Shown here piece after piece: positions 8,866 through 37,926 of a stretch of DNA of 64,000 nt (the stretch's first letter is position 1; every line of letters starts with the position of its first letter). Source of the stretch: Spirochaetia bacterium (lineage in GTDB: Bacteria; Spirochaetota; Spirochaetia; CAKZLE01); the NCBI GenBank assembly GCA_963677595.1, contig OY782041.1, positions 2,208,001 through 2,272,000 of the forward strand. Direction: 5' to 3'. The notes below the pieces were generated by a model. That model was given only the letters and a program-made list of their open reading frames with translations. It was not told where the DNA came from and did not search any database. A program made the translations under genes and the position numbers.

Positions 8866-8887
8866 CACATAAGATAAGGAGAACGTT

Positions 8888-9955: not shown

Positions 9956-9976
9956 ATTGAGAGAAGGAAGAGAGTT

Positions 9977-12228: not shown

Positions 12229-12252
12229 GCGATATACGAAGAGGATAATAAG

Positions 12253-15406: not shown

Positions 15407-15431
15407 CTATAGAGGGGATATGGGATAGATC

Positions 15432-20210: not shown

Positions 20211-20233
20211 TGGCTATTACCTCAATCTATAAA

Positions 20234-20266
20234 CTGAATACAGACCGACCGTCGGTCTGTATTCAG
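20234..20266. promoter_or_regulatory. TetR operator (16-bp perfect inverted repeat)
   Basis: CTGAATACAGACCGAC-C-GTCGGTCTGTATTCAG directly downstream of the tetR -10 box. Confidence 0.85.
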
Positions 20267-20293
20267 AATAGAACTACCTGAGTTGTTTGTCAA
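20265..20293 (-). promoter_or_regulatory. Sigma70 promoter of tetR-kinase operon
   Basis: Minus strand TTGACA-17 bp-TATTCT. Confidence 0.7.
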
Positions 20294-20340
20294 ATCAAAA
20301 GACTAGCTCTGTTGGTTCTTATGATTGACTAAGAACAATC

Positions 20341-20417
20341 CACAAAGAAGATTCTTGTTTGGTACAGGGAGCTTGTATACAGCTGTCCTCCCAGGAGCCC
20401 GGATCCTAACTGAATAT
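20341..20417 (+). repeat. Degenerate direct repeat, copy A
   Basis: Manual alignment to 36560-36644 gives about 66 of 77 identical columns plus two gaps. Confidence 0.8.
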
Positions 20418-20438
20418 CATGGAACATATAGAAAATAT

Positions 20439-20462
20439 CAGACATATTATATAATATGTCTG
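20439..20462. promoter_or_regulatory. 24-bp perfect palindrome CAGACATATTATATAATATGTCTG (probable FadR/GntR operator)
   Basis: Perfect palindrome; second copy 63 bp downstream. Confidence 0.78.
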
Positions 20463-20501
20463 TTTATATCAAACTAGAATGGATAAAACTTGATAAATAA
20501 T

Positions 20502-20525
20502 CAGACATATTATATAATATATCCG
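20502..20525. promoter_or_regulatory. Second operator copy CAGACATATTATATAATATATCCG
   Basis: 22/24 identity to the 20439 site. Confidence 0.75.
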
Positions 20526-20702
20526 TATGTTGTACGATTATACAAGTTGCATGAAGACAAAAAAGAAATAACCATACTCATGAGAAGAGCCATGTACTAT
20601 GATATAGAGAACATAGGCTGAGTATCAAGGTACATGCTGCGTGGTTGATCAATCGATTTGCCGTCTGTGCAAGATATATGCTTTATGAGGGGGAGGAGTA
20701 TC

Positions 20703-20963
20703 ATGAATGTTACAGTCAAGATGGAATATTATGCATGGTACTCTACAAAGACAGGACTAAAGTCGGAAGAGATCAGTGTGAGCCCTGATGTAGAACTGGC
20801 TTATGAATCTATAGTCACATACCTGGAAGAGACGTATGGGATCACTACCCCCTTCATATTGATGCTGGGTAATACGCATATCATACGTGCATTAAAACAA
20901 AAGACCGTACTGAAAGACGGTGACGTATTCAAACTGGTGCCGACGGTGATATCCGGAGGTTAG
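20703..20963 (+). CDS. moaD: MoaD/ThiS-family sulfur carrier
   Basis: 86 aa, LKDGD...P...ISGG C-terminal Gly-Gly; GGAGGAG RBS; next to the AOR gene. Confidence 0.8.
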   Translation: MNVTVKMEYYAWYSTKTGLKSEEISVSPDVELAYESIVTYLEETYGITTPFILMLGNTHIIRALKQKTVLKDGDVFKLVPTVISGG

Positions 20964-21023
20964 GGCTTTGGGAAATATTGAATTGATAACAGAATGCTAT
21001 TTGAGTGAATAAGGAGAGATGCT

Positions 21024-22910
21024 ATGTTCGGGTATGCAGGAAAAATATTACATGTTGATCTTACGACTGGACAGCTTGAAGTGGAAACCCCAGATGAAAG
21101 CTTCTACAGGATGTATGTGGGAGGAAGCTGTCTAGGCGCCTACTATGTGATGAATGGAATGAAAGGTGGAGTTGATCCGCTCTCCCCTGAGAGTGTCATG
21201 GTCTTTTCCATAGGACCTATTACCGGTGCGAACATGAGTGGTGCCTGCAGGCATGCGATCACTGGGAAATCCCCTATGACAGGCGGCATCATGGCCACCG
21301 AGGCTGGTGGGTACTGGGCACATGAGCTGAGACTCTCAGGGTTCGATGCTATCGTACTGAAGGGTAAAGCGGAGAAGCCTGCCTATCTTTGGATCAATGA
21401 CGGTGAAGTTGAGCTGCGTGACGGGTCCCGGATCTGGGGTAAGACAACCAAGGAAGCCCAGCAGGTAATCAGGGATGAACTTGGAGATCCCAAGATCAGG
21501 GTCGCCCAGATCGGTATTTCCGGTGAGAACCTCTGCAATTATGCGAATGTGGTCAATGAACTGGCGCACTTTAACGGACGCGGCGGGATGGGTGCCGTGA
21601 TGGGTTCGAAGAACCTGCGGGCCATAGCCGTTCGGGGTACACAGAAGCCGGAGTTCTATGACCCAGAAGGCATGAAAGGGTTTATCAGGAGACTCATTTC
21701 CGATATCCGCAACTCCGAGCAGTGGCAGGCATTCAAACAGAACGGAACGCTTGGTGAGATCGAGGCGCAGTCGCTGATCGGCGGGCTTCCCACAAGAAAT
21801 ATGACATCAGGGAATTTCGAGGGAGCTGAAGCCCTCTATACCGAATCATTCAATGAGACGCTCATCAAGCCCGGGACCTGCCATGCCTGTGCATTAAGCT
21901 GCAAACGCCATGTTGACGGCAGTAGAACGACTGAGATCGATCCGGCTTACGGCGGACCAGAGTATGAGACAGTCGGGATGGTCGGTTCCAACCTGGGTAT
22001 CTCAGATAAAGTTGCTGTCTGCAAGCTTAATGAGATATCGGCAAAATATGCCTACGATACCATATCGTTCGGGGCGACAGCAAGTTTCATCATGGAATGC
22101 TATGAGAACGGCATCATCACCAAAGAGGACATAGGCGGACTGGACCTGAGATTCGGCAATGCTGAGGCTTCCATAGAGCTTGCAGAGATGATCGGCAAAG
22201 GTGAAGGGTTCGGTAAGCTGGCAGCGAAGGGATCGGAACTGCTGGCCAAGCATTTTGGCAGGGGGAGTGAGAAGTATCTCCTGACGGTAAAAGGGAAGGA
22301 GTTCCCTGCACATATGCCGCAGGCAAAAGGGTCCCTTGCAATATCATATGCAGTCATCCCGTATGGTGCCGATCACTGTGCGGTTGAGATGGATACCAGT
22401 ATTACCGTTGCCCCGATACCTCCCAGGTTGGCTGCTGTCGGTGTTGACCGGCCGGAAGATCCTGCAGCATTGAATATCGAGAAATCCAAGCTCAAATGGA
22501 GAACCCAGCAGGCATACAGCCTGGATGATACTGCCTGTGTCTGTATGGTGATCTTCGGGTTCGGCCCGGTGAAGGGCCATGAAGACTTGGTAGAGGCCAT
22601 AAACTATGCAACCGGATGGCAGACCTCCCTCGTGGAGATGCTGATGGCTGGAGAACGCAGGGTCCAGATGATGCGTGCGTTCAATGTCAGGGAAGGGTTT
22701 ACAAATGAGGATGATGTGCTCCCTGAGAAAATGTACGTACCGCTTGAAGGCGGGGTGCATGATGGGGAAGCCATTGACAGAGGCGCGTTCTACGAAACAA
22801 GGGATTTCTATTATGAACTGGCAGGCTGGACCGGCAAGAACGGTGCCCCATCTACAGCAAAACTGTTGTCCCTGAATTTAGATTGGGTCGTTGATTTCCT
22901 GAAGCAGTAA
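21024..22910 (+). CDS. aor: Aldehyde:ferredoxin oxidoreductase (tungstopterin AOR/WOR family)
   Basis: GYAGKILHVDLT, KSPMTG, GRGGMGAVMGSKNLRAI, CHACALSC, GPEYET, DTIS, GADH, FNVREG. Confidence 0.93.
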   Translation: MFGYAGKILHVDLTTGQLEVETPDESFYRMYVGGSCLGAYYVMNGMKGGVDPLSPESVMVFSIGPITGANMSGACRHAITGKSPMTGGIMATEAGGYWAHELRLSGFDAIVLKGKAEKPAYLWINDGEVELRDGSRIWGKTTKEAQQVIRDELGDPKIRVAQIGISGENLCNYANVVNELAHFNGRGGMGAVMGSKNLRAIAVRGTQKPEFYDPEGMKGFIRRLISDIRNSEQWQAFKQNGTLGEIEAQSLIGGLPTRNMTSGNFEGAEALYTESFNETLIKPGTCHACALSCKRHVDGSRTTEIDPAYGGPEYETVGMVGSNLGISDKVAVCKLNEISAKYAYDTISFGATASFIMECYENGIITKEDIGGLDLRFGNAEASIELAEMIGKGEGFGKLAAKGSELLAKHFGRGSEKYLLTVKGKEFPAHMPQAKGSLAISYAVIPYGADHCAVEMDTSITVAPIPPRLAAVGVDRPEDPAALNIEKSKLKWRTQQAYSLDDTACVCMVIFGFGPVKGHEDLVEAINYATGWQTSLVEMLMAGERRVQMMRAFNVREGFTNEDDVLPEKMYVPLEGGVHDGEAIDRGAFYETRDFYYELAGWTGKNGAPSTAKLLSLNLDWVVDFLKQ

Positions 22911-23057
22911 GATGTCAGGTAGATAAACAGGAAATCAGCGCAATAGACATTATGAGTAGATCCTCTAGATGGGTACAGCTATCTAGGGGATTTTCCTCTA
23001 TTCAGGGGCGCTGAAAAGGACATTATCCTTGTTTGGGCAAGAACCTTGAGGTAGGTC

Positions 23058-24242
23058 ATGGACAGATTCATCCTTGTTTCCATATATGGAGCATTCCTGC
23101 TCTTCGGACTTCCGTATACACTGCTTGGTGCAGGATGGCCTGTCATCCAGGCTGAGCTTGGTATCCCCTTGGGGTATGTCGGCATCATACAGATGCTGAT
23201 CTCAGCAGGCCCAGTAGTCTCAAGCATGTTCTCAAGCATGTTCCTGGAGCGCTATGGGATCCGCAGGCTGCTGGTCATAGGATTCGGGGTCATTGCAGTG
23301 ACGCTTCTTGGGTTCTCAGCCGCAGCGTCTCTTCTCTGGCTGATCCTTGCAGCTATACCGTTCGGCATTGGCTATGGGTTCATCAATACAGGGATCAACA
23401 GTTATGTTGCTCACCATTATAAATCACAGCACATGAGCTGGCTTCATGCGTTATTTGGGATAGGAGCCCTGGGAGGCCCATTACTGCTCTCAGTCCTGCT
23501 CCTTCATGGGCATTCCTGGCGACTGAGTTATCAAGGTGTCGTCATCCTGCAGCTTATGGCGATCATCATACTCATCGTCTCAAAACCCATATGGGATCGT
23601 GCAGAGAAGGATGACATGGACATGGACTCTGATGTGGGACAGAAGCCGGTCCGTCTCCATAAGGTATTCAGGATCCCCGGGGTCCGTCCTGCGCTCCTGG
23701 TCTTTTTCTTCTACGGAGGTACGGAGGCAAGTGTCGGGTTATGGGGTGCATCCTACCTGTTCAAGACCAAAGGGATGACAGCAGCCGCCGCAGCTGTTTG
23801 GGTATCCGTGTTCTTTGCCAGTGTGACAGCAGGCCGGATCATCGTAGGGTTCTTATCAGGCAGGCTGACAAATAATGCCAAGATCCTGCTGGGGGCGATC
23901 ATTGTATTCTCAGGCCTGCTGCTTATGATACTCCCCCTGCCGATACCGGCAGTTCTCGCAGGAATCATCCTGATAGGACTGGGGTATGCACCGATTATCC
24001 CCTCAATGCTGCATGAGACCCCTGTCCGGTTCGGGAAGGTCAATTCGCCATCTATCCTGGGTATCCAGATGGTAATGGTAGCAATCGGGGCAACCCTGCT
24101 TCCCTTTCTGTTCGGATTCATAGCAGGCATGAATACCTCTGCCAGACTTTCATTACTGCCTTGGTTCATTCTTCTTTGCCACCTGCTTGTCTGTATGAGT
24201 TTTATACGGCTTACCCTCATCACCAGAAAAGAAGCTGTTTAG
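23058..24242 (+). CDS. MFS transporter (fucose-permease-like)
   Basis: About 12 TM segments, GLP..LLGAGWP, MSWLHALFGIGA, ETPVRFG. Confidence 0.9.
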   Translation: MDRFILVSIYGAFLLFGLPYTLLGAGWPVIQAELGIPLGYVGIIQMLISAGPVVSSMFSSMFLERYGIRRLLVIGFGVIAVTLLGFSAAASLLWLILAAIPFGIGYGFINTGINSYVAHHYKSQHMSWLHALFGIGALGGPLLLSVLLLHGHSWRLSYQGVVILQLMAIIILIVSKPIWDRAEKDDMDMDSDVGQKPVRLHKVFRIPGVRPALLVFFFYGGTEASVGLWGASYLFKTKGMTAAAAAVWVSVFFASVTAGRIIVGFLSGRLTNNAKILLGAIIVFSGLLLMILPLPIPAVLAGIILIGLGYAPIIPSMLHETPVRFGKVNSPSILGIQMVMVAIGATLLPFLFGFIAGMNTSARLSLLPWFILLCHLLVCMSFIRLTLITRKEAV

Positions 24243-24330
24243 CTCTACTGCCAGTACGGATAAGATATCAAAGAGGTGATGAGAAGAGGTGGGTTGAAAT
24301 GCTGCCGGATAGCAGGGTGTAGCCGGCAGA

Positions 24331-25014
24331 TCAGTCTTCTTCGGACTCCATCAAGGCGCTGACGATCTTGAAACGTGCCTCAACGAACTGCTTGTTCATA
24401 AGCTCCGTTACTGCAGGAAGGTCCTGCTTGGCAAATGCGTTGAGGATCTTCTCATGCTGGATCGCTACTTCCATCAGGTTCGTTGGTGGTGGATGGATCT
24501 TGGCCATCTCATACAAGTCCCAGAAAGCTGTCAGAAGCTGTTCCAGCAGAATATTCCCTGTGCTGCCGAACAGAATCCTGTGGAACTCCCGATCCTCATG
24601 TACAAAATCCTCGCTGATCTCGGCCTTAGCTTTCATACTTGTGACTTGCTTGTTCATTTCGAGTATCTGGTCCATATTGGTCCGCTGGATAGCCTGCGGG
24701 AGGGAATTGATCTCAAGGATACTGCGGATCTCCATCAATTCCAACAGCATCCTTGGCTTTGCCTTGAGCATGATCGACCAAGTGTCTATGATCTGGACCC
24801 CGATATTGGGAACGTGGACGAACCGTCCCCTTCCCTGATAGGAACGTATGATACCACTGGATTCAAAGATGCTGAGCGTTTCCCTCAATGATGAGCGACT
24901 GACGTTGAATTCGCTTATCATCTCCTTCTCCGTGGGTAATTTCTCGCCAGAATCCATACGGTCGACTATAAGGTCAATCAGTTTTTCTTCGAGTGTCTTC
25001 TCTTTACTGCTCAT
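24331..25014 (-). CDS. GntR/FadR-family regulator
   Basis: KLPTEKEMISEFNVSRSSLRE, QGRGRFV; FCD domain DREFH...GN..L, H..I. Confidence 0.93.
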   Translation of the reverse strand: MSSKEKTLEEKLIDLIVDRMDSGEKLPTEKEMISEFNVSRSSLRETLSIFESSGIIRSYQGRGRFVHVPNIGVQIIDTWSIMLKAKPRMLLELMEIRSILEINSLPQAIQRTNMDQILEMNKQVTSMKAKAEISEDFVHEDREFHRILFGSTGNILLEQLLTAFWDLYEMAKIHPPPTNLMEVAIQHEKILNAFAKQDLPAVTELMNKQFVEARFKIVSALMESEED

Positions 25015-25329
25015 GACTGTCAAACTCCATATTCTCTGATATTTCCTTATCAATAAACAAGTAGCTGATTATTCACGCAAATATGGACTTGTTTTTGAAA
25101 ACAAATATTATTTATATTGTAAAATTTGTCTGATAAATTATCAAGCATTATTTTCATGATCCAAGGTTTTCAACGATTTTCCTCGAGATACGGTCTCAAG
25201 CCACCGGCCAGAGGGCAATGGGCAGGAACATGTATTGCCTCTCAAACGCTTCCTAGTATATCCATAGGAGATGGATTGTCTTGATCAACACGCAAGGAAT
25301 AACCCATTGTGTGGGTGATACGATCCAAT

Positions 25330-25373
25330 CCTTGCTGCAGCCATATATCATCAAGATGAAGGCTGCAGCAAGG
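25330..25373 (-). terminator. Stem-loop after the aldolase gene
   Basis: CCTTGCTGCAGCC / GGCTGCAGCAAGG perfect 13-bp stem. Confidence 0.6.
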
Positions 25374-25393
25374 AGTCCCACTCACTAGGGGAG

Positions 25394-26245
25394 TTACAGC
25401 CTATTCCCGGACATGCATAATTCAATGGAATTAGCTAATGCCCCTTCCATCGCTCTTGACCCAGTTGCCATGATATCCATCAGCCCCAGGTCGTCCGGCT
25501 TCTCAGCTAGATGTGACTTGATACCATTGATAAAGGCACTTCGCAATGCTGTGCTGAAATTGATCTTGGCGATTCCCATTTTAACAGCCTGCTGGATCTG
25601 GTCTCCGGGGATCCCAGTGCCACCATGCAGTACCAGGGGGATCGATACTTTCTCCGTGATCTCCTCCAGTCTGTTGAAATCGAGCTGGGGAGATTCCCGG
25701 TAGAACCCATGGGCGTTCCCGATAGCGACCGCCAGGCAGTCGATCCCGGTCTCATTCGCAAGGCGCTCGGCAGAACCTGCATCAGCGAGATAGGCATTCT
25801 CGATCTTCTCACCCATCTCTGTTGTCTGGCCGATGGTGCCGATCTCGCCTTCTACTGTTACACCAGCTGCATGGGCAAACTCGACGACCTTCCTGGTGTT
25901 TGCTATGTTCTCTTCCAGAGGCAGGGGAGAGCCGTCATACATGACACTGGTGAAGCCGCCCTGGATACTTCTCATCACATTCTCGATCGATTCGCCGTGG
26001 TCAAGGTGCACTGCCACTTCAAGGTCCATATCGGCACCGACATCCCTGACCATGTCGACCAGCGTCTTTGCCCCGGCATAGTATACTTCAAGGAAGTGTG
26101 CCTGAATGATGACTGGGGACCTTTTTTCGTTTGCCACTTTCAATACACTCTGGATGTTCTCAAGGTTGCAGACGTTGAAAGCCGGGACTGCATAATTGTT
26201 CTTGTATGCTTTTACCAGTAAGTCCTTCATAGGGTATAGAATCAT
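25394..26245 (-). CDS. Class II fructose/tagatose-bisphosphate aldolase family (YdjI/GatY-like)
   Basis: AFNV, HLDHG, SVMYDGS, EGEIG, AVAIGNAHG, LVLHGGTG, KINF. Confidence 0.92.
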   Translation of the reverse strand: MILYPMKDLLVKAYKNNYAVPAFNVCNLENIQSVLKVANEKRSPVIIQAHFLEVYYAGAKTLVDMVRDVGADMDLEVAVHLDHGESIENVMRSIQGGFTSVMYDGSPLPLEENIANTRKVVEFAHAAGVTVEGEIGTIGQTTEMGEKIENAYLADAGSAERLANETGIDCLAVAIGNAHGFYRESPQLDFNRLEEITEKVSIPLVLHGGTGIPGDQIQQAVKMGIAKINFSTALRSAFINGIKSHLAEKPDDLGLMDIMATGSRAMEGALANSIELCMSGNRL

Positions 26246-26270
26246 GTTATTTCCACCTTTATATAGTTAG

Positions 26271-27140
26271 TTAAAGTAAATCCATCACCCCTTCCAAGTC
26301 TGCCAATGCTTCTTTGGAAAGAGGCTGAAATGGCTTCCTACATGTCCCGCACGGCACACCAAGCATCTCAAGGGCTGCTTTCACACCTTTGAAGACACCG
26401 ATCTTCACCAGGACCTGGATGATCTGATTCGCCTCTGATTGAAGCTTGAGCGCTGAATCCAACTCACCAGCCTGGAAGTGTTTCTGTATGCGTATGAATT
26501 TTTCTGCCATGAAATTGAATGTGCTGCCGATAGCAGCTTCAGCACCAATGGAGAGTGCACTGAGGTATATCTCATCATGCCCGATGAACAGTGACTTCTC
26601 AGGGAACTTCCCGATGATCTGCTGGAGCTGGAACAGGTCGTACGAGGTGTGCTTCATCCCGATGATGCGTTCTTCTGAGAGGAACTTCTCAATATCCTGG
26701 TCTGAGAAGGATATCCCTGACATAGCCGGTACGTTATAAACGATCATAGGGACCGAGACCTCGTTCGCGATGTCCAGGTAGTACCGATAGTACTCATCGA
26801 TAGTGAATTTGAAGTAAAAGGGCGGTACTGAAGAGATGGCATCTACCTTGAGTGCATCTGCATGTTTAGCCAGTGCTATCCCATCCCTTGTAGAGAAGGA
26901 ACCGATATTGACGATGACATCCGCTTCGTTATTGACCGTTTCGACTACCATCTCCAGTATGGCCTTTCTTTCCTCCAGCGAGAGGAGATACGATTCTCCC
27001 GTACTCCCTCCGACATAGAACCCGGATACTCCTTTATCCATATTCCACGTAATCAGCTTCTTGAGTGCTGTTCTATCAAAGTCTCCCTCTTTATTGAAGG
27101 GAGTGACGAGAGCCGGGAATATCCCTTTGAATGATCTCAT
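26271..27140 (-). CDS. nanA: N-acetylneuraminate lyase-like (DHDPS family) aldolase
   Basis: PALVTPF, YVGGSTGE, PPFYF, YNVP, GMKHTS (Schiff-base Lys), GHDE, IGSTFN. Confidence 0.75.
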   Translation of the reverse strand: MRSFKGIFPALVTPFNKEGDFDRTALKKLITWNMDKGVSGFYVGGSTGESYLLSLEERKAILEMVVETVNNEADVIVNIGSFSTRDGIALAKHADALKVDAISSVPPFYFKFTIDEYYRYYLDIANEVSVPMIVYNVPAMSGISFSDQDIEKFLSEERIIGMKHTSYDLFQLQQIIGKFPEKSLFIGHDEIYLSALSIGAEAAIGSTFNFMAEKFIRIQKHFQAGELDSALKLQSEANQIIQVLVKIGVFKGVKAALEMLGVPCGTCRKPFQPLSKEALADLEGVMDLL

Positions 27141-27190
27141 AGCAGTTCTCCAGATTCTTTAAAATAATATGTATGATAAATAATATGAAA

Positions 27191-27219
27191 ATATTATTAT
27201 ATATACAACAAATTGTCAA
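27191..27219 (-). promoter_or_regulatory. Sigma70 promoter of the nanA-like/aldolase operon
   Basis: Minus strand TTGACA-17 bp-TAATAT; operator half-site at 27164-27177 just downstream. Confidence 0.65.
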
Positions 27220-27489
27220 TAAATACTTTATTAAGTCTTATATGTTGGCTTGTTCGAAATACCATTGGGAGCCAGCCATAAGCGATTACCTGTATCTGAC
27301 CCTGTTGTGAGGGCTAAAATTTTAATTTGATGCCATATTGACCCTTTGGTATGAACCGATGAAACTGTTTAGGGGAGCTTGTCAGTCGGAACAGATCCGG
27401 CTTTTAAGCTGGTTTACTACAGGTTTTGTAGTATTTGTAGATGTATATCCGATAAAACTTATAAAAGGTAATACATTTAAAGAAAAAAA

Positions 27490-27518
27490 TTGACAATAGG
27501 TTCAACCTATGGTAGCCT
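27490..27518 (+). promoter_or_regulatory. Sigma70 promoter with a palindrome in the spacer
   Basis: TTGACA-17 bp-TAGCCT; ATAGGTT-C-AACCTAT at 27496-27510. Confidence 0.6.
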
Positions 27519-27577
27519 ATATTCATAAATGGTATGAGTATTGCCTATTGTCATGATGAAATTGGAGAAGCTTGATA

Positions 27578-28615
27578 ATGAGGAATTTAGCTGCATATGT
27601 TGTAGAGAACAGGAAGATTGAGATCAGGGAAAGCGAGATGCCGGTATGCGGTGACCATGATGTCATGGTCAAGATCGAGTATTGCGGTGTCTGCGGATCT
27701 GATGTGCATTTCTACCAACATGGAGAACCAGCGTTCCCCGATGTCTATCCATTCATCCTTGGTCATGAATGTGCCGGGAAAGTGGTTGCGGTAGGAAGCA
27801 AGGTGACATCACACAAGATCGGGGACCGGGTAGCACTTGAACCCGGGATCACCTGCGGCTCCTGTGAGTGGTGTAAAGGTGGGAAGTATAACCTATGCCC
27901 GAATGTGAGATTTCTCTCTGCACCAACATATCAGGGGGCAATGAGGGAATTCGTCGTACATCCTGCGGAATTGTGCTTCATACTACCTGAGAACATCACC
28001 TCAATGGAGGGAGCCCTGATTGAGCCACTCGCTGTCGGGCTCAATGCAGCGACTAAATCAGGTATTACCATAGGAAAGAAGGCAGTCGTCCTCGGGGCAG
28101 GCTGCATAGGGCTTGTCACCTTACTGTCACTGAAGGCTATGGGGATCGATGACATCGCTGTAGTGGATCTGTTCGACATCAGGTTGGAGAAAGCGAAGGC
28201 TCTTGGGGCTGCCCATGTGGTGAATGCATCGGAGACCGATCCGATAGAGGCGGTTCGTTCGATCTTCGGCGGGATCGGTCCGGATTATGTGTTCGAGACA
28301 GCCGGCAGCATCCATACCGCGGAGCAGACCGTCTATATGGTGAAACGAGGCGGAACGATCGTGATGATCGGGAACACGGTCGGGAAGACGCCGTTCAATT
28401 TCCAGCTCTTCGTAGATAAAGAGGTCCAGATGCAGTCAGTCTTCAGGTACAGGAATATCTACCCCACCGCAATCGAGGCATTGAGGACGGGGAAGATCGA
28501 CCTGAGCCAGATCGTATCAAAGGTATTTGACTTTGAAGACACGATGGAAGCCTTTGAGGCGTCGATCCTTGAGAAACAGACGATGGTCAAGGCCGTTATC
28601 AAGATTAACGGATAG
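27578..28615 (+). CDS. ydjJ: Zn-dependent polyol/sorbitol dehydrogenase, YdjJ-like
   Basis: CGSDVH, GHE, C-x2-C-x2-C-x7-C, GAGCIG, VFRY; resembles E. coli YdjJ as recalled. Confidence 0.8.
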   Translation: MRNLAAYVVENRKIEIRESEMPVCGDHDVMVKIEYCGVCGSDVHFYQHGEPAFPDVYPFILGHECAGKVVAVGSKVTSHKIGDRVALEPGITCGSCEWCKGGKYNLCPNVRFLSAPTYQGAMREFVVHPAELCFILPENITSMEGALIEPLAVGLNAATKSGITIGKKAVVLGAGCIGLVTLLSLKAMGIDDIAVVDLFDIRLEKAKALGAAHVVNASETDPIEAVRSIFGGIGPDYVFETAGSIHTAEQTVYMVKRGGTIVMIGNTVGKTPFNFQLFVDKEVQMQSVFRYRNIYPTAIEALRTGKIDLSQIVSKVFDFEDTMEAFEASILEKQTMVKAVIKING

Positions 28616-28624
28616 GTGAAGTAC

Positions 28625-29572
28625 ATGGGTGAAGTCAAGGACGTAGTATGTGTTGGATTCGTGACTACCGATATCATGGCCAACGGGGTCGAGAAGATCG
28701 AGTTCGGTGGTGTGACCAATATCGTTGATTCAGTGAGTATGCATGTTGGCGGGGATGCGTTGAATGAGGCATTCACCCTGGCCCATCTTGGCCATAAAAC
28801 CGGCCTCATGTCACTGGTCGGCAGGGATGCACAAGGTGAGTTCGTCGCTGCTGAATGCAGGAAGGCCGGTGTTGATACTGAAGGGGTTGCAATCAGTGAT
28901 ACATACCCAACCTCCACGAGTGTGGTTCTCGTTGGGAGGGATGGACAGAGAAGTTTCATATCACAGCATGGAGGCTGTGCCGATGAATACTCCCTCGATG
29001 ATATCGACCTCTCGCTGATACAGCCGGGGACCCGGGTCGTCTCCATCGGGAGTATCTTCTGCAGTAAGAGCTTTGACCAGGGAGCACTTCGTGCTGTCCT
29101 GGAGAAGGCAAAGTCGGTCGGGGCTGTCACCATCGCGGATTTTGTGCCTAACCGCAATGAAGCGAATATCGAGGAGTTGAAGGAAGTCCTCCCCCTGCTT
29201 GATTATGTGGTCCCGAGTATCGAGGAAGCGGTACTGTATACCGGGTTATCGGACCTTGATGAGATAGCAGAGGCATTCCTGAAGGCTGGAGCCGGGACCG
29301 TTCTGATTAAGATGGGAAAGAAGGGCTCCTTCGCGAAGAATGAGCACGAGAGGCTTGAACTCCCGATATATGATGCGAAAGTCATCGATACGACTGGCGC
29401 CGGAGATAATTTTGTCGCAGGGTTCATATCCGGGTTGTTGAGGGATTACTCGCTGGAGGGGTGCCTGCAGGTTGGAACAGCGACTGCCGCTGTCTCTGTA
29501 GGTTCTATCGGGGCAACAACTGGCGTTCGCAGCTTTGCCCAAGTTCAGGAAGTCATACATAAGAATTCATAA
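28625..29572 (+). CDS. ydjH: PfkB-family sugar kinase, YdjH-like
   Basis: GGDALNEA, SIFCS..FDQGAL, LDEIAEAFL, DTTGAGDNFVAGFI, IGATTGV closely resemble E. coli YdjH as recalled; alternative GTG start at 28616. Confidence 0.82.
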   Translation: MGEVKDVVCVGFVTTDIMANGVEKIEFGGVTNIVDSVSMHVGGDALNEAFTLAHLGHKTGLMSLVGRDAQGEFVAAECRKAGVDTEGVAISDTYPTSTSVVLVGRDGQRSFISQHGGCADEYSLDDIDLSLIQPGTRVVSIGSIFCSKSFDQGALRAVLEKAKSVGAVTIADFVPNRNEANIEELKEVLPLLDYVVPSIEEAVLYTGLSDLDEIAEAFLKAGAGTVLIKMGKKGSFAKNEHERLELPIYDAKVIDTTGAGDNFVAGFISGLLRDYSLEGCLQVGTATAAVSVGSIGATTGVRSFAQVQEVIHKNS

Positions 29573-29584
29573 GGGAGTTATGTC

Positions 29585-30691
29585 ATGGATCATAAGATAG
29601 CGAAAGTAAGTGTTCATCTTGTGTCATACCCGATCAATGAAGGGTATCAGGATGCTACAAGAACAGTAGAGACGATTGGGTTCACTATAGTTCGTATTGT
29701 CACCGACCAGGGACTGGAAGGGTTCGGGGTAACCTACCACGAGGTTGGCGGAGAAGCGATCAAGACACTTATCGAGAAGAACATGGTCCATAAGCTTATC
29801 GGGCGGGACCCCTTCCAGACTGAGGTTATTTGGCAGGAATTCTTCCATTACCTGCGGGGAGTAGGACGGAAAGGGTTAACCTTCTGTGCGATCAGTGCCA
29901 TCGATATAGCGTTGTGGGACTTGAAGGGGAAGATCCTGGGTATGCCGCTCTATAAACTGTTTGGCGGTGTAGAGACGAAGATCCCCGTGTATGGGAGCGG
30001 CGGCTGGGTCTCGTTCTCTGATGATGACCTGGTAGCTGAGATGAAAGGTATCGTTGACCAGGGATACTCCATGATCAAGTTCAAAGTCGGGTACGACGGC
30101 GGGACCAAACCCGGCCGGGACCTGGAACGTGTACGGAAGGTCAGGGAGGCTGTAGGGCCCGATATCGGGATCATGCTGGATGCCAACAACTGCTGGGATG
30201 CCGGTACGAGTGTCTATTTTGCCAATCGGGTCAAGGAATATGACATCATGTTCTTAGAGGAACCGGTCTTTGCGGACGATATTCCGGGCCTTGCCAGATA
30301 CAAACATGGCACAGACCTGCCCCTGGCTACCGGGGAGCATGAGTATACCAAGTTTGGGGTTCGCGACCTGGTCCTCAACAATGCCGCTGATATCATCCAG
30401 GTCGATGGTACCCGCGCAGGTGGGTTCACCGAGATGCTGAAGATCGCTGCGATAACACAGGCCTGGAACCTCAAGTTCGCGCCGCACGCGATGGAGAACT
30501 TACAGATCCACCTGGTGAGTGCAGCTTATAATTCACTTTTCCTGGAACGCCTGCTGATGTTCGAGGAAGTAACCTCTCTTGTCTTTGATAATCCACCCAT
30601 GCCCGAGAATGGCTATATGCATATTCCTGACCTTCCTGGTTTGGGGCTGAAGCTGGATTTGGATTTCATCAAAGAGCATGATGAAGCGTAA
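29585..30691 (+). CDS. Mandelate racemase/enolase-superfamily enzyme (probable acid-sugar dehydratase)
   Basis: SAIDIALWDLKGK, KFK, DANN, EEP, GEH, APH, PGLG. Confidence 0.92.
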   Translation: MDHKIAKVSVHLVSYPINEGYQDATRTVETIGFTIVRIVTDQGLEGFGVTYHEVGGEAIKTLIEKNMVHKLIGRDPFQTEVIWQEFFHYLRGVGRKGLTFCAISAIDIALWDLKGKILGMPLYKLFGGVETKIPVYGSGGWVSFSDDDLVAEMKGIVDQGYSMIKFKVGYDGGTKPGRDLERVRKVREAVGPDIGIMLDANNCWDAGTSVYFANRVKEYDIMFLEEPVFADDIPGLARYKHGTDLPLATGEHEYTKFGVRDLVLNNAADIIQVDGTRAGGFTEMLKIAAITQAWNLKFAPHAMENLQIHLVSAAYNSLFLERLLMFEEVTSLVFDNPPMPENGYMHIPDLPGLGLKLDLDFIKEHDEA

Positions 30692-30974
30692 AGCATAATC
30701 CGCTGTTGATCGAATCAGTCATGGTTTCGGGGCTTGTGTTGAGACTGAGACCCGAACGTCAATCTTACTCATCATAGCAGCTTTGGATGAATAGCGATCC
30801 ATGTACGGATAGTAACAGGAGGTATTCAGGACAAAGAGACATTGCATGCGGTTTGTAGTTTGGAGGGGTAGGGTTTTATACAGTCTCTGAGGCGTGAGAC
30901 TGTCCATTGCTCTATATGATCTATGTAATCAACCCTTAACCATTGATTAAGGTTGAAAAGGATAAAAGGAGAAA

Positions 30975-32477
30975 ATGATTATGAAGAAACTAATCGTTTC
31001 CGTGCTTCTTCTCAGCGTACTGCTGACTGGAGCGTTCGCAGGTGGTGCAGCTGAGAAAGCTACCACGTCTGACAGCGGGCTTCCCTATGAGGAGCTGGTA
31101 ATCTACTGGCTCAAGATCGGTGAAGCTTCTGACATGCCGAGAATACAGGCAAAGGTTAATGAGATCCTGATGGATAAGCTCAACTGTGAGGTAAGGTTCG
31201 AAGTGATCGATACCGCTGAGTTCTCACAGCAGTTCACCCTGGCTATGGCTTCCGGTGAGCAGGTCGACCTGGCAATCTCCGGGGACTGGATCAACTATTC
31301 CACCAACGTGGCTAGTGAGATGTACGTTCCTATCGATGATCTCCTGGCAAAATACGGTTCAGACCTTAAGAAATATGTCCCCGAGGATATCATTGCATGT
31401 TCGAACTATAAAGGGAAACCCTATGGTGTAGCTTCTATCCGTGAATGGGCAACTGACTTCGGCTGGACAGGTAGAACAGATATCCTGGACAAATACAACA
31501 TCGACCGAGCAGCGATCAAGACTTGGGAAGACCTTACCCCCGTTTTCAAGACTATCGTTGACGGCGAAGGCGTCCCTGTCGTCATCTATGAATCAGCTGG
31601 TGACTCCGTCATTTCCGGTTTCTATTCTGGTTACTTCGATTCCCTTTCTGACTTCAACGGCGTACTTGACTTCAGCGTTGACAATATGACAAGTACGAAG
31701 GTCGTGAACATGTTCGAGACTCCTTCATACCTGAGGTTCGCGAAACTGGTCAAGACGTGGAATGATATTGGCGCTATCCCCCCTAACGCATCAACCATGA
31801 CAGAAGCACATAATACGCTCCTGAGGGCAGGTTCTGTTCTCGGATATATCTCCAAGATGAAACCTGGATATGACAACAAGGAATCGATCTCCAATGGCTA
31901 TGACGTAGAGTCTATCCACCTGTCAGATATCGTCCAGTCAACTGGTACGGTTGCCAACATCATGTACTCGATTCCTTATACCACGGTCGACGCAGACCGA
32001 GCTATGATGGTCATGAATGAGATGTACAGCAATCCTGAGATCGTCAACCTCCTCTCTTATGGTGAAGAGGGTGTAGACTACAAGGTAGGAAGTGACGGTA
32101 TCGCAATGTTCGCTGACGGCGTGACCTCGCAGAATGCGACCTATAACCCAACCTGGAGCTGGATGGTCGGTAACCAGTTCCTTGCTCACCCATGGGTACC
32201 GGATGCCAATACTATCTGGGATGAGACTGCGGCATTCAATGACCTTGGTCAGAAATCACCTGCTTTCGGGTTCATCTTCGATCCTACACCGGTATCTGCT
32301 GAGACCGCTGCAGTTGAGAACGTGAAGGCACAGTATGAGGACGCGATCGGTAATGGTGAAGTGGCAAATGTTGAAGCAGCTATCGCTGAATTCAATGACG
32401 CCCTGTACAAAGCCGGTCTCCAGAAGATCATGGATGAGAAGACAAAGCAGCTCAATGCATATCTCTCATCAAACTAA
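30975..32477 (+). CDS. Carbohydrate ABC transporter substrate-binding protein (DUF3502 type)
   Basis: Signal peptide FAGGAAE, LAMASGEQVDL, YGEEGVDY, SPAFGFIFDPTPV, LYKAGLQKI...QL. Confidence 0.9.
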   Translation: MIMKKLIVSVLLLSVLLTGAFAGGAAEKATTSDSGLPYEELVIYWLKIGEASDMPRIQAKVNEILMDKLNCEVRFEVIDTAEFSQQFTLAMASGEQVDLAISGDWINYSTNVASEMYVPIDDLLAKYGSDLKKYVPEDIIACSNYKGKPYGVASIREWATDFGWTGRTDILDKYNIDRAAIKTWEDLTPVFKTIVDGEGVPVVIYESAGDSVISGFYSGYFDSLSDFNGVLDFSVDNMTSTKVVNMFETPSYLRFAKLVKTWNDIGAIPPNASTMTEAHNTLLRAGSVLGYISKMKPGYDNKESISNGYDVESIHLSDIVQSTGTVANIMYSIPYTTVDADRAMMVMNEMYSNPEIVNLLSYGEEGVDYKVGSDGIAMFADGVTSQNATYNPTWSWMVGNQFLAHPWVPDANTIWDETAAFNDLGQKSPAFGFIFDPTPVSAETAAVENVKAQYEDAIGNGEVANVEAAIAEFNDALYKAGLQKIMDEKTKQLNAYLSSN

Positions 32478-32510
32478 TGATCCAACAGTAGTTGGAATCT
32501 GATGTTCACG

Positions 32511-32531
32511 CGGGGGAGGGTTCCTCCCCCG
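32511..32531 (+). other. GC-rich stem-loop after the SBP gene
   Basis: CGGGGGAGG-GTT-CCTCCCCCG. Confidence 0.55.
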
Positions 32532-32565
32532 TTGTGATCTAGCTTTAGAATACGTAACGAGTGCT

Positions 32566-33390
32566 ATGCAGAGAGATACCTTCCAGCTGAGTTTCTGCCA
32601 GCCCTGCTTTCAGGGTGAGGGACTGGAAACCAGTCTAAAAAGATTGAAGCGACTTGGGTATGATGGGGTTGAGCTTTCCGGCGATCTGGCTGAGACTGTA
32701 CCAGTACTGGAGCTGCTCAAACGGTATGATCTGACTTGCTTCTCGATTAACGGGCTCTATACAGAGGATCGTGATCTTTCTTCGAAAGATGCTTCTGTAC
32801 GGAGCAATGCAGTAACATACTGCAGGACCTGCATCGATACGGCTGCCCAGCTTGATGCAAAGGTCGTGATCATCGTCCCGACCTTCATCGGCAAGCTGGG
32901 ACCGGAGACAACGGTCGAAGCTGAGTGGGCACATGTGGTTTCAGGCTTGAAACAGGTTGCCGAGTATGCTGAAGATGCAGGCATATGGATTGTCGTGGAA
33001 TCGGTGAATCGATATGAGTCCTATCTGGTCAACAGGCTGGGGACTCAATATGAGTTGCTGCGTGAAGTAGACAACCCGGCAGTGAGGATGATGGGAGACC
33101 TGTTCCACATGAACATTGAAGAGGCGGATATCTGCGAAAGTATCAAGCGATATGCTCCCTGGTTGAAGCATATGCATATTGCAGATAATCATCGCCGGCC
33201 GATAGGGATGGGCAGCTTGCCCATGAAAGAGATCATACAGTCATTACATCAGGCAGGCTGGGATATGCCCCTGACTATGGAGTATGATCATTTGGTACCG
33301 GGTACGAACGGTATCATCTCGAGAGTGAATGAACCTGAGATCTACGATAGATATGCCGGGGTTGCGGCAGAGACTATCAGACGACTGTGA
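32566..33390 (+). CDS. Sugar phosphate isomerase/epimerase (ketose 3-epimerase-like TIM barrel)
   Basis: GYDGVEL, ESVNRYE, DLFHMNIEE, HMHIADNHR..G.G, E ligands. Confidence 0.88.
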   Translation: MQRDTFQLSFCQPCFQGEGLETSLKRLKRLGYDGVELSGDLAETVPVLELLKRYDLTCFSINGLYTEDRDLSSKDASVRSNAVTYCRTCIDTAAQLDAKVVIIVPTFIGKLGPETTVEAEWAHVVSGLKQVAEYAEDAGIWIVVESVNRYESYLVNRLGTQYELLREVDNPAVRMMGDLFHMNIEEADICESIKRYAPWLKHMHIADNHRRPIGMGSLPMKEIIQSLHQAGWDMPLTMEYDHLVPGTNGIISRVNEPEIYDRYAGVAAETIRRL

Positions 33391-33459
33391 ATGTAGCTGT
33401 CATGGAACCTGATGGTAAGGGGACATGGATTACTATACTAAACAACATAGAGGTGTGAA

Positions 33460-34533
33460 ATGAAAGCGGTAATTAAGAAAGGGTATGAAGATCATCTTAT
33501 TGAATATACGGATATCCCGAAACCTGAGGTAGGGGAATTCGATGTCCTGGTAAAAGTCAAGGCAGCAGGTATCTGCGGATCTGATCTATCCCTGTTATAC
33601 GGCAAAGTCGAAGGGAAGACCGTTGATTACCCAATAGTCATCGGGCATGAGTTTTCCGGTGAGATCGTTGAAGTAGGGGAGAAAGTCACTGCATGGAAAG
33701 TCGGTGACCGGGTCATCTCTGATAATACCGGATATGTCTGCGGGAAGTGCCATGCCTGTGCGAGCGGCCAATACCTGTTCTGTGCTGATAGAAAGGGCAT
33801 GGGCAATGATATGGACGGTGGGTTTGCCCAGTACGTGAAGATACCGGGCCAAGTCCTCAACGTCTTCCCCAACTGTCTCCAAGAAGTCCCTGAAGGGGTT
33901 TCCTTTGAATATGCAGCTGCTATCGAACCGTTCTGCAACGCCTACAAGGCCGTAATCCAGGAAGCCAGGCTTCTTCCTGGCCAGACTATCGTTGTGTTCG
34001 GGGCTGGGGCTCTCGGCCTGTTCAGCATCCAGGCTGCCAATATCGGCAGTGCGGGCAAGATCATCGTCGTCGGTACGAGTGATGATGAGGAAGTCAGGTT
34101 CAAGAAGGCTGCGATCCTGGGAGCAACAGATTTTGTCGTAGCCGACAAGGATGATGTTGTGACCAAGATCAAGGAGATTGCGGGACCGGAAGGTGTAGCT
34201 GTCGCTGTAGATTGTGCCGGGCCTGGTATTGTCCTCAAGCAGTCCATCGATATCGTTCGTAATGGAGGTATCATCGTAAAGATCGGATACAGCCACAAGC
34301 CTCTTGATTTCTCACTCGACACCATGGCATTGAAGGGAATCACTCTTATCGGGCACATGGGGTATGACACCGCATCGTGGAAGAATAGCCTGGTACTCCT
34401 GAAGGACGGAAGGGTGAACATGGATGCGATCATCTCCCACACCCTGCCGCTTGAAAAGTGGGAGGAGGGGTTCACCCTCGTGAAAGAGCGAAAGGCAACG
34501 AAGGTCCTGTTGATCCCACCTGCTGAAGCATAA
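33460..34533 (+). CDS. ydjL: Zn-dependent dehydrogenase, YdjL-like
   Basis: GHEF, WKVGDRVISDNTGYVCG, CNAYKA..Q..LLPGQ, KPLDFS, IGHMGYDTASWKN closely resemble E. coli YdjL as recalled. Confidence 0.85.
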   Translation: MKAVIKKGYEDHLIEYTDIPKPEVGEFDVLVKVKAAGICGSDLSLLYGKVEGKTVDYPIVIGHEFSGEIVEVGEKVTAWKVGDRVISDNTGYVCGKCHACASGQYLFCADRKGMGNDMDGGFAQYVKIPGQVLNVFPNCLQEVPEGVSFEYAAAIEPFCNAYKAVIQEARLLPGQTIVVFGAGALGLFSIQAANIGSAGKIIVVGTSDDEEVRFKKAAILGATDFVVADKDDVVTKIKEIAGPEGVAVAVDCAGPGIVLKQSIDIVRNGGIIVKIGYSHKPLDFSLDTMALKGITLIGHMGYDTASWKNSLVLLKDGRVNMDAIISHTLPLEKWEEGFTLVKERKATKVLLIPPAEA

Positions 34534-34609
34534 GATACGGGATTATATGAACATGAGTCCTATGGTAAGCGATACGATTTTTAAGCGAAAGGAATAATCG
34601 AGGTATTCT

Positions 34610-35572
34610 ATGAAGAAAGACATTTCAACAAGTGGGAGGGGTAACGGTCTCACAGCCGGTAAGAAGTACTGGCGTATCCGTCGGGTGATTCCATTATTCC
34701 TCATGATGGCACCCGGGCTCTTATACCTCTTCGTGAACAATTATCTGCCGTTGAGTTATCTCTGGGTAGCTTTCAAGAATGTCCACTTTGCCAAGGGGCT
34801 GTGGGCAAGTCCCTGGTCTGGTCTGGATAACTTCCTGTATCTGTTCAAGACACATGATGCATGGGTGATCACCCGGAACACCGTCGGATACAATCTCTGT
34901 TTCATCACCGCGAACACCGTGTTCCCCATTGCCCTTGCCCTGATGCTGAATGAGGTTCGGAGGACATCATTGAAGAAATTCTTCCAGACGACTATCCTGA
35001 TCCCATACCTGCTCTCGATGGTAATCGTCGGATACCTGGTCTATGCCCTGTTGGCTGATGATACCGGTGTTATCAACAACTCGGTAATGGGCTGGTTCAA
35101 TCTTGAACCGGTGAAATGGTACAGTACCCCCAATAAGTGGGTAGGAATCCTTAATATCGTGAATATCTGGAAGAATGCCGGGTATTATACCATCATCTAT
35201 TATGCTGCCATCATCGGTATCGGGCCGGAGTATTATGAAGCAGCCGCTATCGATGGTGCGAACCTCTGGCAGAGACTTACCAAAGTCACGCTGCCAATGA
35301 TCAGTACGGTGATCATCACACTGGTATTCCTCCAGGTCGGGAAGATATTCTATTCAGACTTCGGGATGTTCTATCAGGTACCGTTGAACACCGGGGCCCT
35401 GCTGCCTACCACCAATGTCATTGATACCTATGTATATCGTGCCCTGCTGCAATTAGGGAATATCGGCATGTCGGCTGCAGCATGTATCTATCAGTCCGTC
35501 GTGGGATTCCTCATCATCATCAGTGCGAATGCGGTCGTTCGGCGAACAAGTCCTGAAAATGCGATTTTCTAA
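34610..35572 (+). CDS. Carbohydrate ABC permease (LplB-like)
   Basis: SPWSGLDNF, YEAAAIDGA EAA motif, VIDTYVYR. Confidence 0.93.
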   Translation: MKKDISTSGRGNGLTAGKKYWRIRRVIPLFLMMAPGLLYLFVNNYLPLSYLWVAFKNVHFAKGLWASPWSGLDNFLYLFKTHDAWVITRNTVGYNLCFITANTVFPIALALMLNEVRRTSLKKFFQTTILIPYLLSMVIVGYLVYALLADDTGVINNSVMGWFNLEPVKWYSTPNKWVGILNIVNIWKNAGYYTIIYYAAIIGIGPEYYEAAAIDGANLWQRLTKVTLPMISTVIITLVFLQVGKIFYSDFGMFYQVPLNTGALLPTTNVIDTYVYRALLQLGNIGMSAAACIYQSVVGFLIIISANAVVRRTSPENAIF

Positions 35573-35582
35573 GGTGAAGCAA

Positions 35583-36473
35583 ATGAAAAAGAAACGAAGT
35601 ATACAGCAAATAGTCCTTGTGGCGATGTTCACGATTATATCTTTGATGTGCGTGATCCCCCTTGTGATCATCATCTCTGCATCGTTCACCGACAACCTGG
35701 TGATCGTGCGGGAAGGATACTCCTTGCTCCCACGATCATTCAGCCTGGATGCATATAACTATCTCGGCACCCAGTTCGATCGAATCCTGAGAGCCTATTC
35801 TGTCACGATCGTGCTCACCGTCGTTGGTGTCGCCATCGGAATTACCATAACATCCTTGCTGGCCTATCCGTTATCGAGGCCGAACCTCCCGTTCAGGAGA
35901 GGGCTCATGTTCTTCGTGTTCTTCACCATGCTCTTCAATTCAGGACTGGTCCCGACCTATATGGTGTATATCAAGATCTTCAATATCAAGAACACCTGGT
36001 TCGCCCTGCTCATCCCCTGGCTGCTTACTAACGGGTTCAATGTCCTGTTGATGCGGACGTTCTTCGCAGGGATCCCTGAATCTCTGATCGAGTCCGCACG
36101 GATCGACGGGTATGGTGAATTCTCGATTTTCCGTCTGATCGTCGTCCCGTTATCGAAGCCTATTGTTTCTACCATGGGAGTCCTCTATATGATCGTCTAC
36201 TGGAATGACTGGTATAATGGAATGATCTTCATCACCGACCCTTCAAAATACAGTCTCCAGAACCTGCTGAACCGAATACTGCAGAATGCACAGTTCATCG
36301 CAAACAATGCAAGCCTGAGCTCCAATGTTACATCCAGTGTGATGGACAGTCTCCCGTTGGCTTCAGTACGGATGGCGATGGCTGTCCTTGGAGCCATGCC
36401 CCTGCTCATCTTCTACCCGTTCTTCCAGAAGTATCTGGTAAAGGGACTGGTCGTTGGTGCGGTAAAGGGGTAA
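35583..36473 (+). CDS. Carbohydrate ABC permease (LplC-like)
   Basis: LIESARIDG EAA motif, YWNDWY, YPFFQKY..KG...GAVKG. Confidence 0.93.
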   Translation: MKKKRSIQQIVLVAMFTIISLMCVIPLVIIISASFTDNLVIVREGYSLLPRSFSLDAYNYLGTQFDRILRAYSVTIVLTVVGVAIGITITSLLAYPLSRPNLPFRRGLMFFVFFTMLFNSGLVPTYMVYIKIFNIKNTWFALLIPWLLTNGFNVLLMRTFFAGIPESLIESARIDGYGEFSIFRLIVVPLSKPIVSTMGVLYMIVYWNDWYNGMIFITDPSKYSLQNLLNRILQNAQFIANNASLSSNVTSSVMDSLPLASVRMAMAVLGAMPLLIFYPFFQKYLVKGLVVGAVKG

Positions 36474-36559
36474 TCAGCACCTGTGACACATGCAGGGAGG
36501 AGAGACTATGGGCAACTGTGGTGACCCATCGGTCGTAAAGGTGTAGATCCTGTTTCGGG

Positions 36560-36644
36560 CACAACGAAGCTTCTTGTACTTTTGTACAGGGAGCTTCACT
36601 TGTATACAGTTGTCTTCCCAGGGTTCCTGATACTAACTGGATAT
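36560..36644 (+). repeat. Degenerate direct repeat, copy B
   Basis: CACAACGAAGCTTCTTGT..GTACAGGGAGCTT..GTATACAGTTGTCTTCCCAGG..CTAACTGGATAT matches 20341-20417. Confidence 0.8.
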
Positions 36645-36793
36645 AGCCCAAAGAAAGGGCAGATCCCCCTTTTCAAGATCAGAAACAGCTTTCTCCTTGC
36701 GCCCAGCTAGTGATTGAATTATACTTTTTACAAGAAGAACAATTAAATTAGTCAGGTTATGTATCAGCTTTTCTTGATGTGGTGGGGGATGCA

Positions 36794-37840: not shown

Positions 37841-37926
37841 CCTGACTGTATGAGGAAGCATGAGAAAGAACGATTCCATACGATAGGATTATACAGTTAA
37901 AGCATACTTTGTGGGGAGGTCATGCA

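Follow-up and report, generated by a model that had tools for sequence, protein, structure and literature searches.

What does a bacterium degrade with a gene set that combines a sugar-acid dehydratase, two aldol-cleaving enzymes and an aldehyde:ferredoxin oxidoreductase (AOR), and is the AOR a part of the pathway? The question is raised by a 16-kb block in a stretch of 64,000 nucleotides (hereafter the window) from the genome of a Spirochaetia bacterium (assembly GCA_963677595.1, contig OY782041.1, positions 2,208,001 to 2,272,000). All 14 genes that an earlier note, made from the sequence alone, had listed at 20439..36473 are present and intact, at the places and in the families given there. 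They form three arms: moaD-aor-MFS (plus strand, 20703-24242), gntR with nanA-fba (minus strand, 24331-27140) and a right arm (plus strand, 27572-36473), in which genes for the dehydrogenase MDR1, a kinase, an enolase-type dehydratase, a solute-binding protein, an epimerase, the dehydrogenase MDR2 and two permeases follow one another. The block is a sugar-acid catabolic gene set, and its sequence relationships place it in a separate, uncharacterised family of clusters in which a dehydratase and a NanA-type lyase form the conserved core. The link between aor and this cluster is probably functional, judging by a shared promoter motif and by an exchange of aldehyde dehydrogenases (ALDHs) for the AOR.

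The first of the two conserved enzymes (29585..30691, plus strand) is an acid-sugar dehydratase of the enolase superfamily, from an uncharacterised clade of the mandelate racemase subgroup. The full catalytic set of this subgroup is invariant: the K165-x-K167 motif, the three metal carboxylates D199, E225 and E251, and the His-Asp dyad D274/H301. Residues R26, R91, R95 and K96 are invariant as well. The fold is that of the subgroup and aligns with 2ovl over 350 residues (Z 47.8, rmsd 1.7). The clade is tight, with 119 homologs listed at 68-77% identity, and contains no solved ortholog; the nearest structures show 30-34% identity. The fold search singled out no function, the Atlas yielded nothing beyond generic clusters of enolases, and the top NCBIfam match, L-talarate/galactarate dehydratase (NF047820), scored 228.8 bits, below its cut-off of 500.

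The second conserved enzyme is a NanA-type pyruvate aldolase/lyase (26271..27140, minus strand), which scores 313 bits against PRK04147 (cut-off 281) and is 38% identical to E. coli NanA. The catalytic and tail-binding residues of the latter, S47, T48, Y110, Y137, K165, G189, D191, E192 and S208, are retained, whereas Y190 is replaced by His throughout the clade of the block lyase. D191, E192 and S208 are presumably the residues that bind the polyol tail of the NanA substrate. Since G189, D191, E192 and S208 are as in NanA, unlike in YagE and YjhH, this comparison speaks for a long 2-keto-3-deoxy acid, produced by the adjacent dehydratase, as the substrate of the lyase. Pairing with a dehydratase is a further difference from NanA, as is the absence of nanE and nanK. 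Elsewhere in the genome, at G000:C1:2037608-2045623, another NanA-like lyase (42%) is encoded in a cluster with GntR, two dihydrodipicolinate synthase (DHDPS) genes, a transporter and a short-chain dehydrogenase/reductase (SDR), also without nanE or nanK.

The family was delimited by all 19 collected loci (18 genomes) encoding an enolase with at least 50% identity, which were read over 8-60 kb; some of them are cut by contig ends. Of 80 loci from a GTDB scan for the enolase, which covered 2 of 64 parts, 6 held close homologs. A NanA-type lyase, in one case a fragment, lies nearby in 11 of the 19 loci. A module of kinase and class II aldolase occurs in seven, all of which have the lyase too; it consists either of YdjH/J/L-like enzymes with Fba or of two RpiB, an epimerase, RhaB and a fused FucA. 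Among the remaining loci, a split transketolase is found in three and an SDR in two. The closest counterparts of the block are the clusters of Blautia schinkii DSM 10518 (L177, L016) and their kin (L210, L212, L173, L176, L180), with 61-76% identity in the enolase and 46-60% in the lyase. L177, L210 and L212 have the same enzyme set as the block, including YdjL-like (71-73%) and YdjJ-like (58-59%) enzymes, the kinase, the aldolase and the TIM barrel, plus two ALDHs. The Blautia-type clusters differ from the block in having NAD-dependent ALDHs and XylF-type uptake and no AOR, and some of them use two RpiB, RhaB and FucA as the ketose module. Such clusters are rare (5/351, 6/301 and 1/399 genomes in three large samples): the class of B. 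schinkii yielded no new enolase relative in 399 genomes, two of which were unscored, and the enolase cluster is absent from the five closest relatives of this genome within its own order. A literature search, whose coverage largely left out subscription journals, found no description of the family or of an AOR within it.

The earlier note had read the block as an expanded ydj-like pathway. The YdjH-, YdjJ- and YdjL-like enzymes on which that reading rested are indeed there. MDR1 (27572..28615, plus strand) and MDR2 (33460..34533, plus strand) are Zn-dependent dehydrogenases 45% identical to YdjJ and 41.5% identical to YdjL, respectively, and MDR2 shares 71-73% with its Blautia-type homologs. 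The PfkB kinase (28616..29572, plus strand) is 38% identical to YdjH, and its top PDB match, 3h49 (YdjH, E 5e-64), outranks the next one (3e-23) by 41 orders of magnitude. For all three, the named Ydj protein was the best match among 26 E. coli proteins, the set used for this comparison in place of the whole proteome. A second YdjJ-like paralog (46%) is encoded elsewhere in the genome. A metagenome scan using the kinase alone gave no relative.

The reading as a whole fails at the aldolase. The class II ketose-phosphate aldolase (25394..26245, minus strand) was considered as a YdjI ortholog and rejected: the YdjI structure 6ofu ranks 17th of 20 matches, KbaY and GatY score higher, and in a tree of 36 sequences (one in five of the 119 homologs, with references added) the enzyme groups with that of B. 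schinkii L016 in a separate, moderately supported clade. YdjE, YdjF, YdjG and YdjK have no match among the 14 block genes either. The block is therefore no expansion of a ydj operon; its conserved core is the enolase and the lyase. Compared with ydjEFGHIJKL of E. coli K-12, where YdjH is an octuluronate kinase and YdjI the aldolase, the block shares three enzymes at 38-45% identity and a class II aldolase, though from another clade. It lacks YdjG, YdjE/K and the DeoR-type YdjF and adds the dehydratase, lyase, epimerase, ABC uptake, a FadR-type regulator and the AOR. Nearly complete E. coli-type ydjL-K-J-I-H-G-F operons with 55-82% identity, likely the result of horizontal transfer, were found in two other genomes from this phylum (L008 in G184, L009 in G259), and the distance of the block from ydj is evident from this. 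According to PMC9602453, the function of ydj itself is only partly determined, YdjH and YdjI favour long carboxylated sugars, and the compound on which YdjI works best does not occur naturally. PMC11194214 gives L-arabinuronate as a YdjI product; in PMC13390454 the name YdjH is applied to a KdgK-like kinase as well.

The left arm begins with a MoaD-like sulfur carrier of 86 aa with a C-terminal GG (20703..20963, plus strand; ThiS PF02597, weak TIGR01687 match), followed by the AOR (21024..22910, plus strand; 628 aa). The latter belongs to the AOR/WOR family by its AFOR_N and AFOR_C domains, its four cluster cysteines (C286, C289, C293, C507) and the catalytic E313 and H451; all six residues are invariant across its 37-member clade. 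The top PDB match is AOR of Pyrococcus furiosus (1aor, E 4e-99), with the same domains and positions. The block enzyme differs from the Pyrococcus AOR and the WOR family in that it lies in a separate clade (56-68% identity among its members), in that its first DxxGL-type motif reads KYAYD, and in the absence of a ferredoxin subunit from the locus. No characterised member of the clade was found. The block AOR is probably tungsten-dependent; the genome encodes a TupA-like tungstate binder (218 bits, cut-off 400) with a permease, and a ModA-family match is also present. The three tight-clade AORs that could be placed lie in catabolic loci of a sugar type, near sugar ABC systems, medium-chain dehydrogenase/reductase (MDR) or SDR enzymes, DeoC or glycyl-radical enzymes, and moaD precedes aor in two of three close homologs. 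The close homologs L093, L191 and L193-L194 (G846), with 61-63% identity, are either neighbours of glycyl-radical enzymes with sugar ABC genes or parts of a recurring locus of B12-mutase-like, hydantoinase-like and IolB-like genes (labelled by eye).

The role of AOR as the aldehyde oxidiser of the pathway, also proposed in the earlier note, is suggested by what the homologous clusters carry in its place. One or two NAD-ALDH genes are present in 7/7 loci with the kinase-aldolase module, and an ortholog is present in none of the 12 others; among these, L013 has an ALDH at 33% only. Two ALDH clades, 52-59% identical to each other, occur together in five of the seven. This genome has no ortholog of the cluster ALDHs, its best candidates showing 30-37% identity as against 64-82% within each clade. 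Conversely, an AOR search in six ALDH-bearing genomes gave no match in five, and the sixth has a distant AOR elsewhere; those encoded by G783, G1493 and G425 are remote (29-31%) and have unrelated neighbourhoods. The simplest reading of these comparisons is that the AOR would be a non-orthologous replacement of ALDH in an AOR-rich genome with TupA-like uptake.

Regulation apparently ties aor to the cluster too. The GntR/FadR-type regulator (24331..25053, minus strand) has GntR and FCD domains and is 50-52% identical to the regulators of the homologous clusters L173 and L182, whose genes are flanked by related sites. Its promoter (25113..25151, minus strand; TTGATA-17-TACAAT) and the sigma70-like moaD promoter (20490..20518, plus strand; TTGATA-17-TATAAT, 11/12 consensus) both carry an operator-like motif with the core TCAGACA in the spacer. 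A second copy of this motif (20433..20451, plus strand) lies 63 nt upstream of the first, ahead of moaD-aor-MFS. The nanA-fba promoter (27164..27219, minus strand; TTGACA at 27219) has a copy downstream with the core TCATACA. Genome-wide, no site resembles the gntR promoter 39-mer more closely than the moaD promoter does (32/39; the runner-up reaches 27), and in a control with 300 AT-rich 39-mers none reached 32 or more within 20 kb. The pattern WWWWTCAKACAWATW, fitted after the sites had been seen, occurs five times in 4.3 Mb, four of them within the moaD, gntR and nanA-fba promoters. A position weight matrix built without the moaD sites ranks them 4th and 7th genome-wide (6th and 7th with an AT-rich background), the upstream site being the one at 4th or 6th; other high-ranking matrix matches are inside AT-rich open reading frames or upstream of unrelated genes. 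A predicted operator that is common to several promoters and overlaps them is typical of a FadR-type regulon, and by these motifs we take the regulatory tie of aor to the cluster to be real. In this sense the claim that aor is wired to the cluster is supported. A perfect palindrome beside a TTGACA before the right-hand operon (27496..27510, no strand assigned), whose core occurs four times in the genome, is a possible site of a second regulator.

The whole block is also bracketed by a degenerate direct repeat (20341..20417 and 36560..36644, no strand; 77.6% over an 85-column alignment), which has only two copies in the genome, enclosing everything from moaD to the last permease, and no Rfam match. 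This suggests that moaD through the last permease may have been acquired as one unit; the genes flanking the block were not found in five relatives. The host genome is a single contig of 4.3 Mb (95.4% complete, 6.28% contamination). One short-read contig of 19,669 nt, probably from the source sample and thus no independent confirmation, covers 18500-36610 with no difference, so the junction of the block is not an assembly artefact. To the right of the block, at 36585-38000, run X1 has two sequence variants, as opposed to one across the block.

Taken together, the genes, their families and catalytic motifs, the common promoter motif and the ALDH/AOR exchange, all directly observed, allow a linear route to be drawn, whose order, chain length, metal and electron acceptor are our inference and to which we give somewhat less than an even chance. 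A sugar acid, predicted to have 7-9 carbons, would enter by ABC uptake and be dehydrated at its acid end by the enolase; the lyase would split the 2-keto-3-deoxy acid into pyruvate and an aldose. The YdjJ/YdjL-like pair would convert the aldose into a ketose via the alditol, as suggested by the cluster variants that exchange two RpiB isomerases for two MDRs. The ketose 3-epimerase-like TIM barrel (32566..33390, plus strand; IolO and D-psicose 3-epimerase matches below cut-off) would set C3, and the YdjH-like kinase would give the ketose 1-phosphate. The class II aldolase would release dihydroxyacetone phosphate (DHAP) and a small aldehyde, which AOR, in place of ALDH, would oxidise with reduction of ferredoxin instead of NAD. 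Two cleavages releasing C3 units in one linear route imply a substrate of at least seven carbons by arithmetic, and the NanA-type tail residues of the lyase and the liking of YdjH and YdjI for long carboxylated sugars agree with this. The sugar-acid catabolism with two aldol-cleaving enzymes expected from the first look at this DNA does find its genes here, the lyase and the class II aldolase.

Parts of such a route have a precedent. In the archaeal nonphosphorylative Entner-Doudoroff pathway, as described in PMC2063504, glyceraldehyde released by the aldolase is oxidised by an NAD(P)- or ferredoxin-linked enzyme, and the sequence from dehydratase through DHDPS-family aldolase to aldehyde oxidation is common to both. 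The archaeal route has a C6 substrate, a 2-keto-3-deoxy-(6-phospho)gluconate aldolase and a glycerate kinase and no module of kinase and class II aldolase. In the block, the match to such an aldolase is far below the cut-off (NF040954, 148.5 vs 390), and no glycerate kinase is found among the 14 genes. As the NAD- and ferredoxin-linked alternatives are already known from that pathway, the block is a variant of known sugar-acid catabolism.

Several observations weigh against the linear route with its AOR. An AOR beside the cluster is known from one genome only: it adjoins 0/19 homologous enolase loci, and such a cluster adjoins 0/80 metagenomic AOR loci and 0/3 placed loci of the tight AOR clade; a GTDB scan for AOR covering 8 of 64 parts gave one tight-clade locus. 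The conservation of aor next to the cluster, which the earlier note had named as a check, was thus not found. The genome holds nine AOR-family genes, several beside catabolic clusters, and adjacency alone therefore means little. A second YdjJ-like cluster (G000:C1:994083-1018683; MDRs, a TIM barrel, a split transketolase, RpiB and MFS) likewise ends in an AOR, with a MoeB-like gene, near the Tup genes, so that this arrangement, a sugar cluster ending in an AOR, recurs in the genome. The seven ALDH loci come from samples of the family or relatives of a single Blautia genome and are not independent, and the work of two ALDHs would fall to one AOR. A matrix built solely from Lachnospiraceae sites recovers the gntR and nanA sites, with the moaD sites outside the top 25; the core by which training sites were chosen had first been seen in this window. 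No strong operator copy lies near the right-hand operon's own promoter. The kinase, besides its modest identity to YdjH, retains R108 and R175 of that enzyme and lacks R114, K120 and R130. To these are added the aldolase, which is not YdjI, and the aldarate dehydratases among the nearest relatives of the enolase.

Ordinary C5/C6 sugar acids could be used by a branched pathway or as two substrates, with AOR still oxidising aldehydes, a model that we consider unlikely. One branch, non-phosphorylative, would lead through dehydratase and lyase to pyruvate and glyceraldehyde or glycolaldehyde; the other, through oxidation at the penultimate carbon, epimerisation, phosphorylation and cleavage, to DHAP and a semialdehyde. 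The two ALDH clades in 5/7 loci would then correspond to two aldehydes, enolase and lyase do occur in four loci without the kinase module, with an SDR or split transketolase, and the top NCBIfam matches of kinase and epimerase are IolC-like and IolO-like. However, the lyase residues are of NanA and not of YagE/YjhH type, running two routes side by side in one regulon would be less parsimonious, and the modules are interleaved in the gene order of L177.

The aldarate dehydratases among the nearest enolase relatives fit a different order of steps. As with YdjH/YdjI of E. coli, a keto-uronate would be converted to the 1-phosphate and cleaved into DHAP and a uronate, which AOR would oxidise to an aldarate; the enolase would dehydrate the aldarate, and the lyase would yield pyruvate and glyoxylate or tartronate semialdehyde. 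The NF047820 match, the top PDB sequence match 3ozm, solved with xylarate and L-lyxarate, and the four invariant Arg/Lys residues of the enolase agree with this order, as does the L-arabinuronate reported for YdjI (PMC11194214). Yet identity to these structural neighbours is low, at about 31%, and cycloisomerases tie with them, the block aldolase is not that of ydj, and the tail residues of the lyase suit an acceptor longer than glyoxylate. This order appears improbable to us.

We give a similarly small chance to a side role of aor within the regulon, in which it would remove methylglyoxal or glyoxal or act as an electron sink, the pathway aldehyde being handled by an MDR or a general ALDH. 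WOR enzymes are broad aldehyde scavengers, two other ALDHs are present in the genome, and YdjG, the methylglyoxal reductase of E. coli ydj, has no counterpart in the block. Nevertheless, what the block lacks by comparison with L177, L210 and L212 is precisely the two ALDHs.

That moaD-aor-MFS is an unrelated neighbour is very improbable: conserved synteny is lacking, the AOR complement is large and the operon lies opposite to gntR, but the promoter motif is shared and the two-copy repeat encloses aor together with the cluster. Equally hard to credit is canonical N-acetylneuraminic acid (Neu5Ac) catabolism with extra genes, in spite of the PRK04147 score and the NanA residues, since E. coli NanE and NanK gave no tblastn match in the genome at E<=1e-10 (95% completeness), the lyase is below the TIGR00683 cut-off (272 vs 382) and it accompanies a dehydratase in 11/19 loci. 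Sulfoglycolysis (sulfo-EMP/EMP2) was rejected, as the block has no sulfoquinovosidase, isomerase or sulfofructose kinase and its kinase is only 24% identical to YihV; the aldolase matches 8q57 and 8q58 are, we assume, sulfofructose-phosphate aldolases.

In a bolder reading, the family would be the missing pathway by which anaerobes degrade natural higher-carbon sugars or the corresponding acids from the cell envelope (heptose-, Kdo/Ko- or Kdn-like). One molecule would be trimmed to pyruvate and DHAP, the natural substrate of the ydj enzymes would come into view, and, with a dedicated tungsten AOR clade wired in here, bacterial sugar fermentation would gain reduced ferredoxin from the leftover aldehyde. 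We regard this reading as possible, though rather doubtful. For the question of what the ydj enzymes act on, the modular family is of use, as it has YdjH/J/L-like enzymes next to a dehydratase and a lyase, together with binding proteins and a regulator. B. schinkii DSM 10518, a strain in culture, carries such a cluster, so that its substrate can be screened directly. From this one genome there also emerges a candidate role for a WOR clade not characterised so far, that of a sugar-catabolic pathway enzyme replacing NAD-ALDH and not of a general detoxifier.

The transport genes of the block comprise a major facilitator superfamily (MFS) transporter (23058..24242, plus strand; PF07690), which reached no curated NCBIfam family and for which acid export, suggested in the earlier note, is at most a candidate role, a DUF3502 solute-binding protein of the ABC system (30975..32477, plus strand) and two permeases (34610..35572 and 35523..36473, plus strand; both PF00528). 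No ATPase gene lies within the block. The binding protein is of the oligosaccharide-binding type and matches 5swa, 5mlt and 5suo, which we take to be pneumococcal N-glycan binders, yet the block encodes no glycosidase.

The remainder of the window upstream of the block contains other loci. An AT-rich segment at 1-2000 (GC 0.36) has a 327-aa repeat-containing open reading frame. The cluster at 1513-13032 (several labels assigned by eye) combines TRAP, LacI and transaldolase genes with creatininase-like, SMP-30-like, Ldh_2-like, SDR, fucose-isomerase-like and HpcH genes; a second copy is found at G000:C1:2745773-2755901, with six genes duplicated at 49-91%. URO-D-like, AraD/FucA-like and rhamnulokinase-like genes at 13423-16946 are probably a separate unit, since the kinase is only 35-38% identical to RhaB of the homologous clusters. 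At 17039-20263, a phosphoenolpyruvate-utilising enzyme resembling rifamycin phosphotransferase (below cut-off) is accompanied by tetR, just upstream of which lies a near-perfect palindrome.

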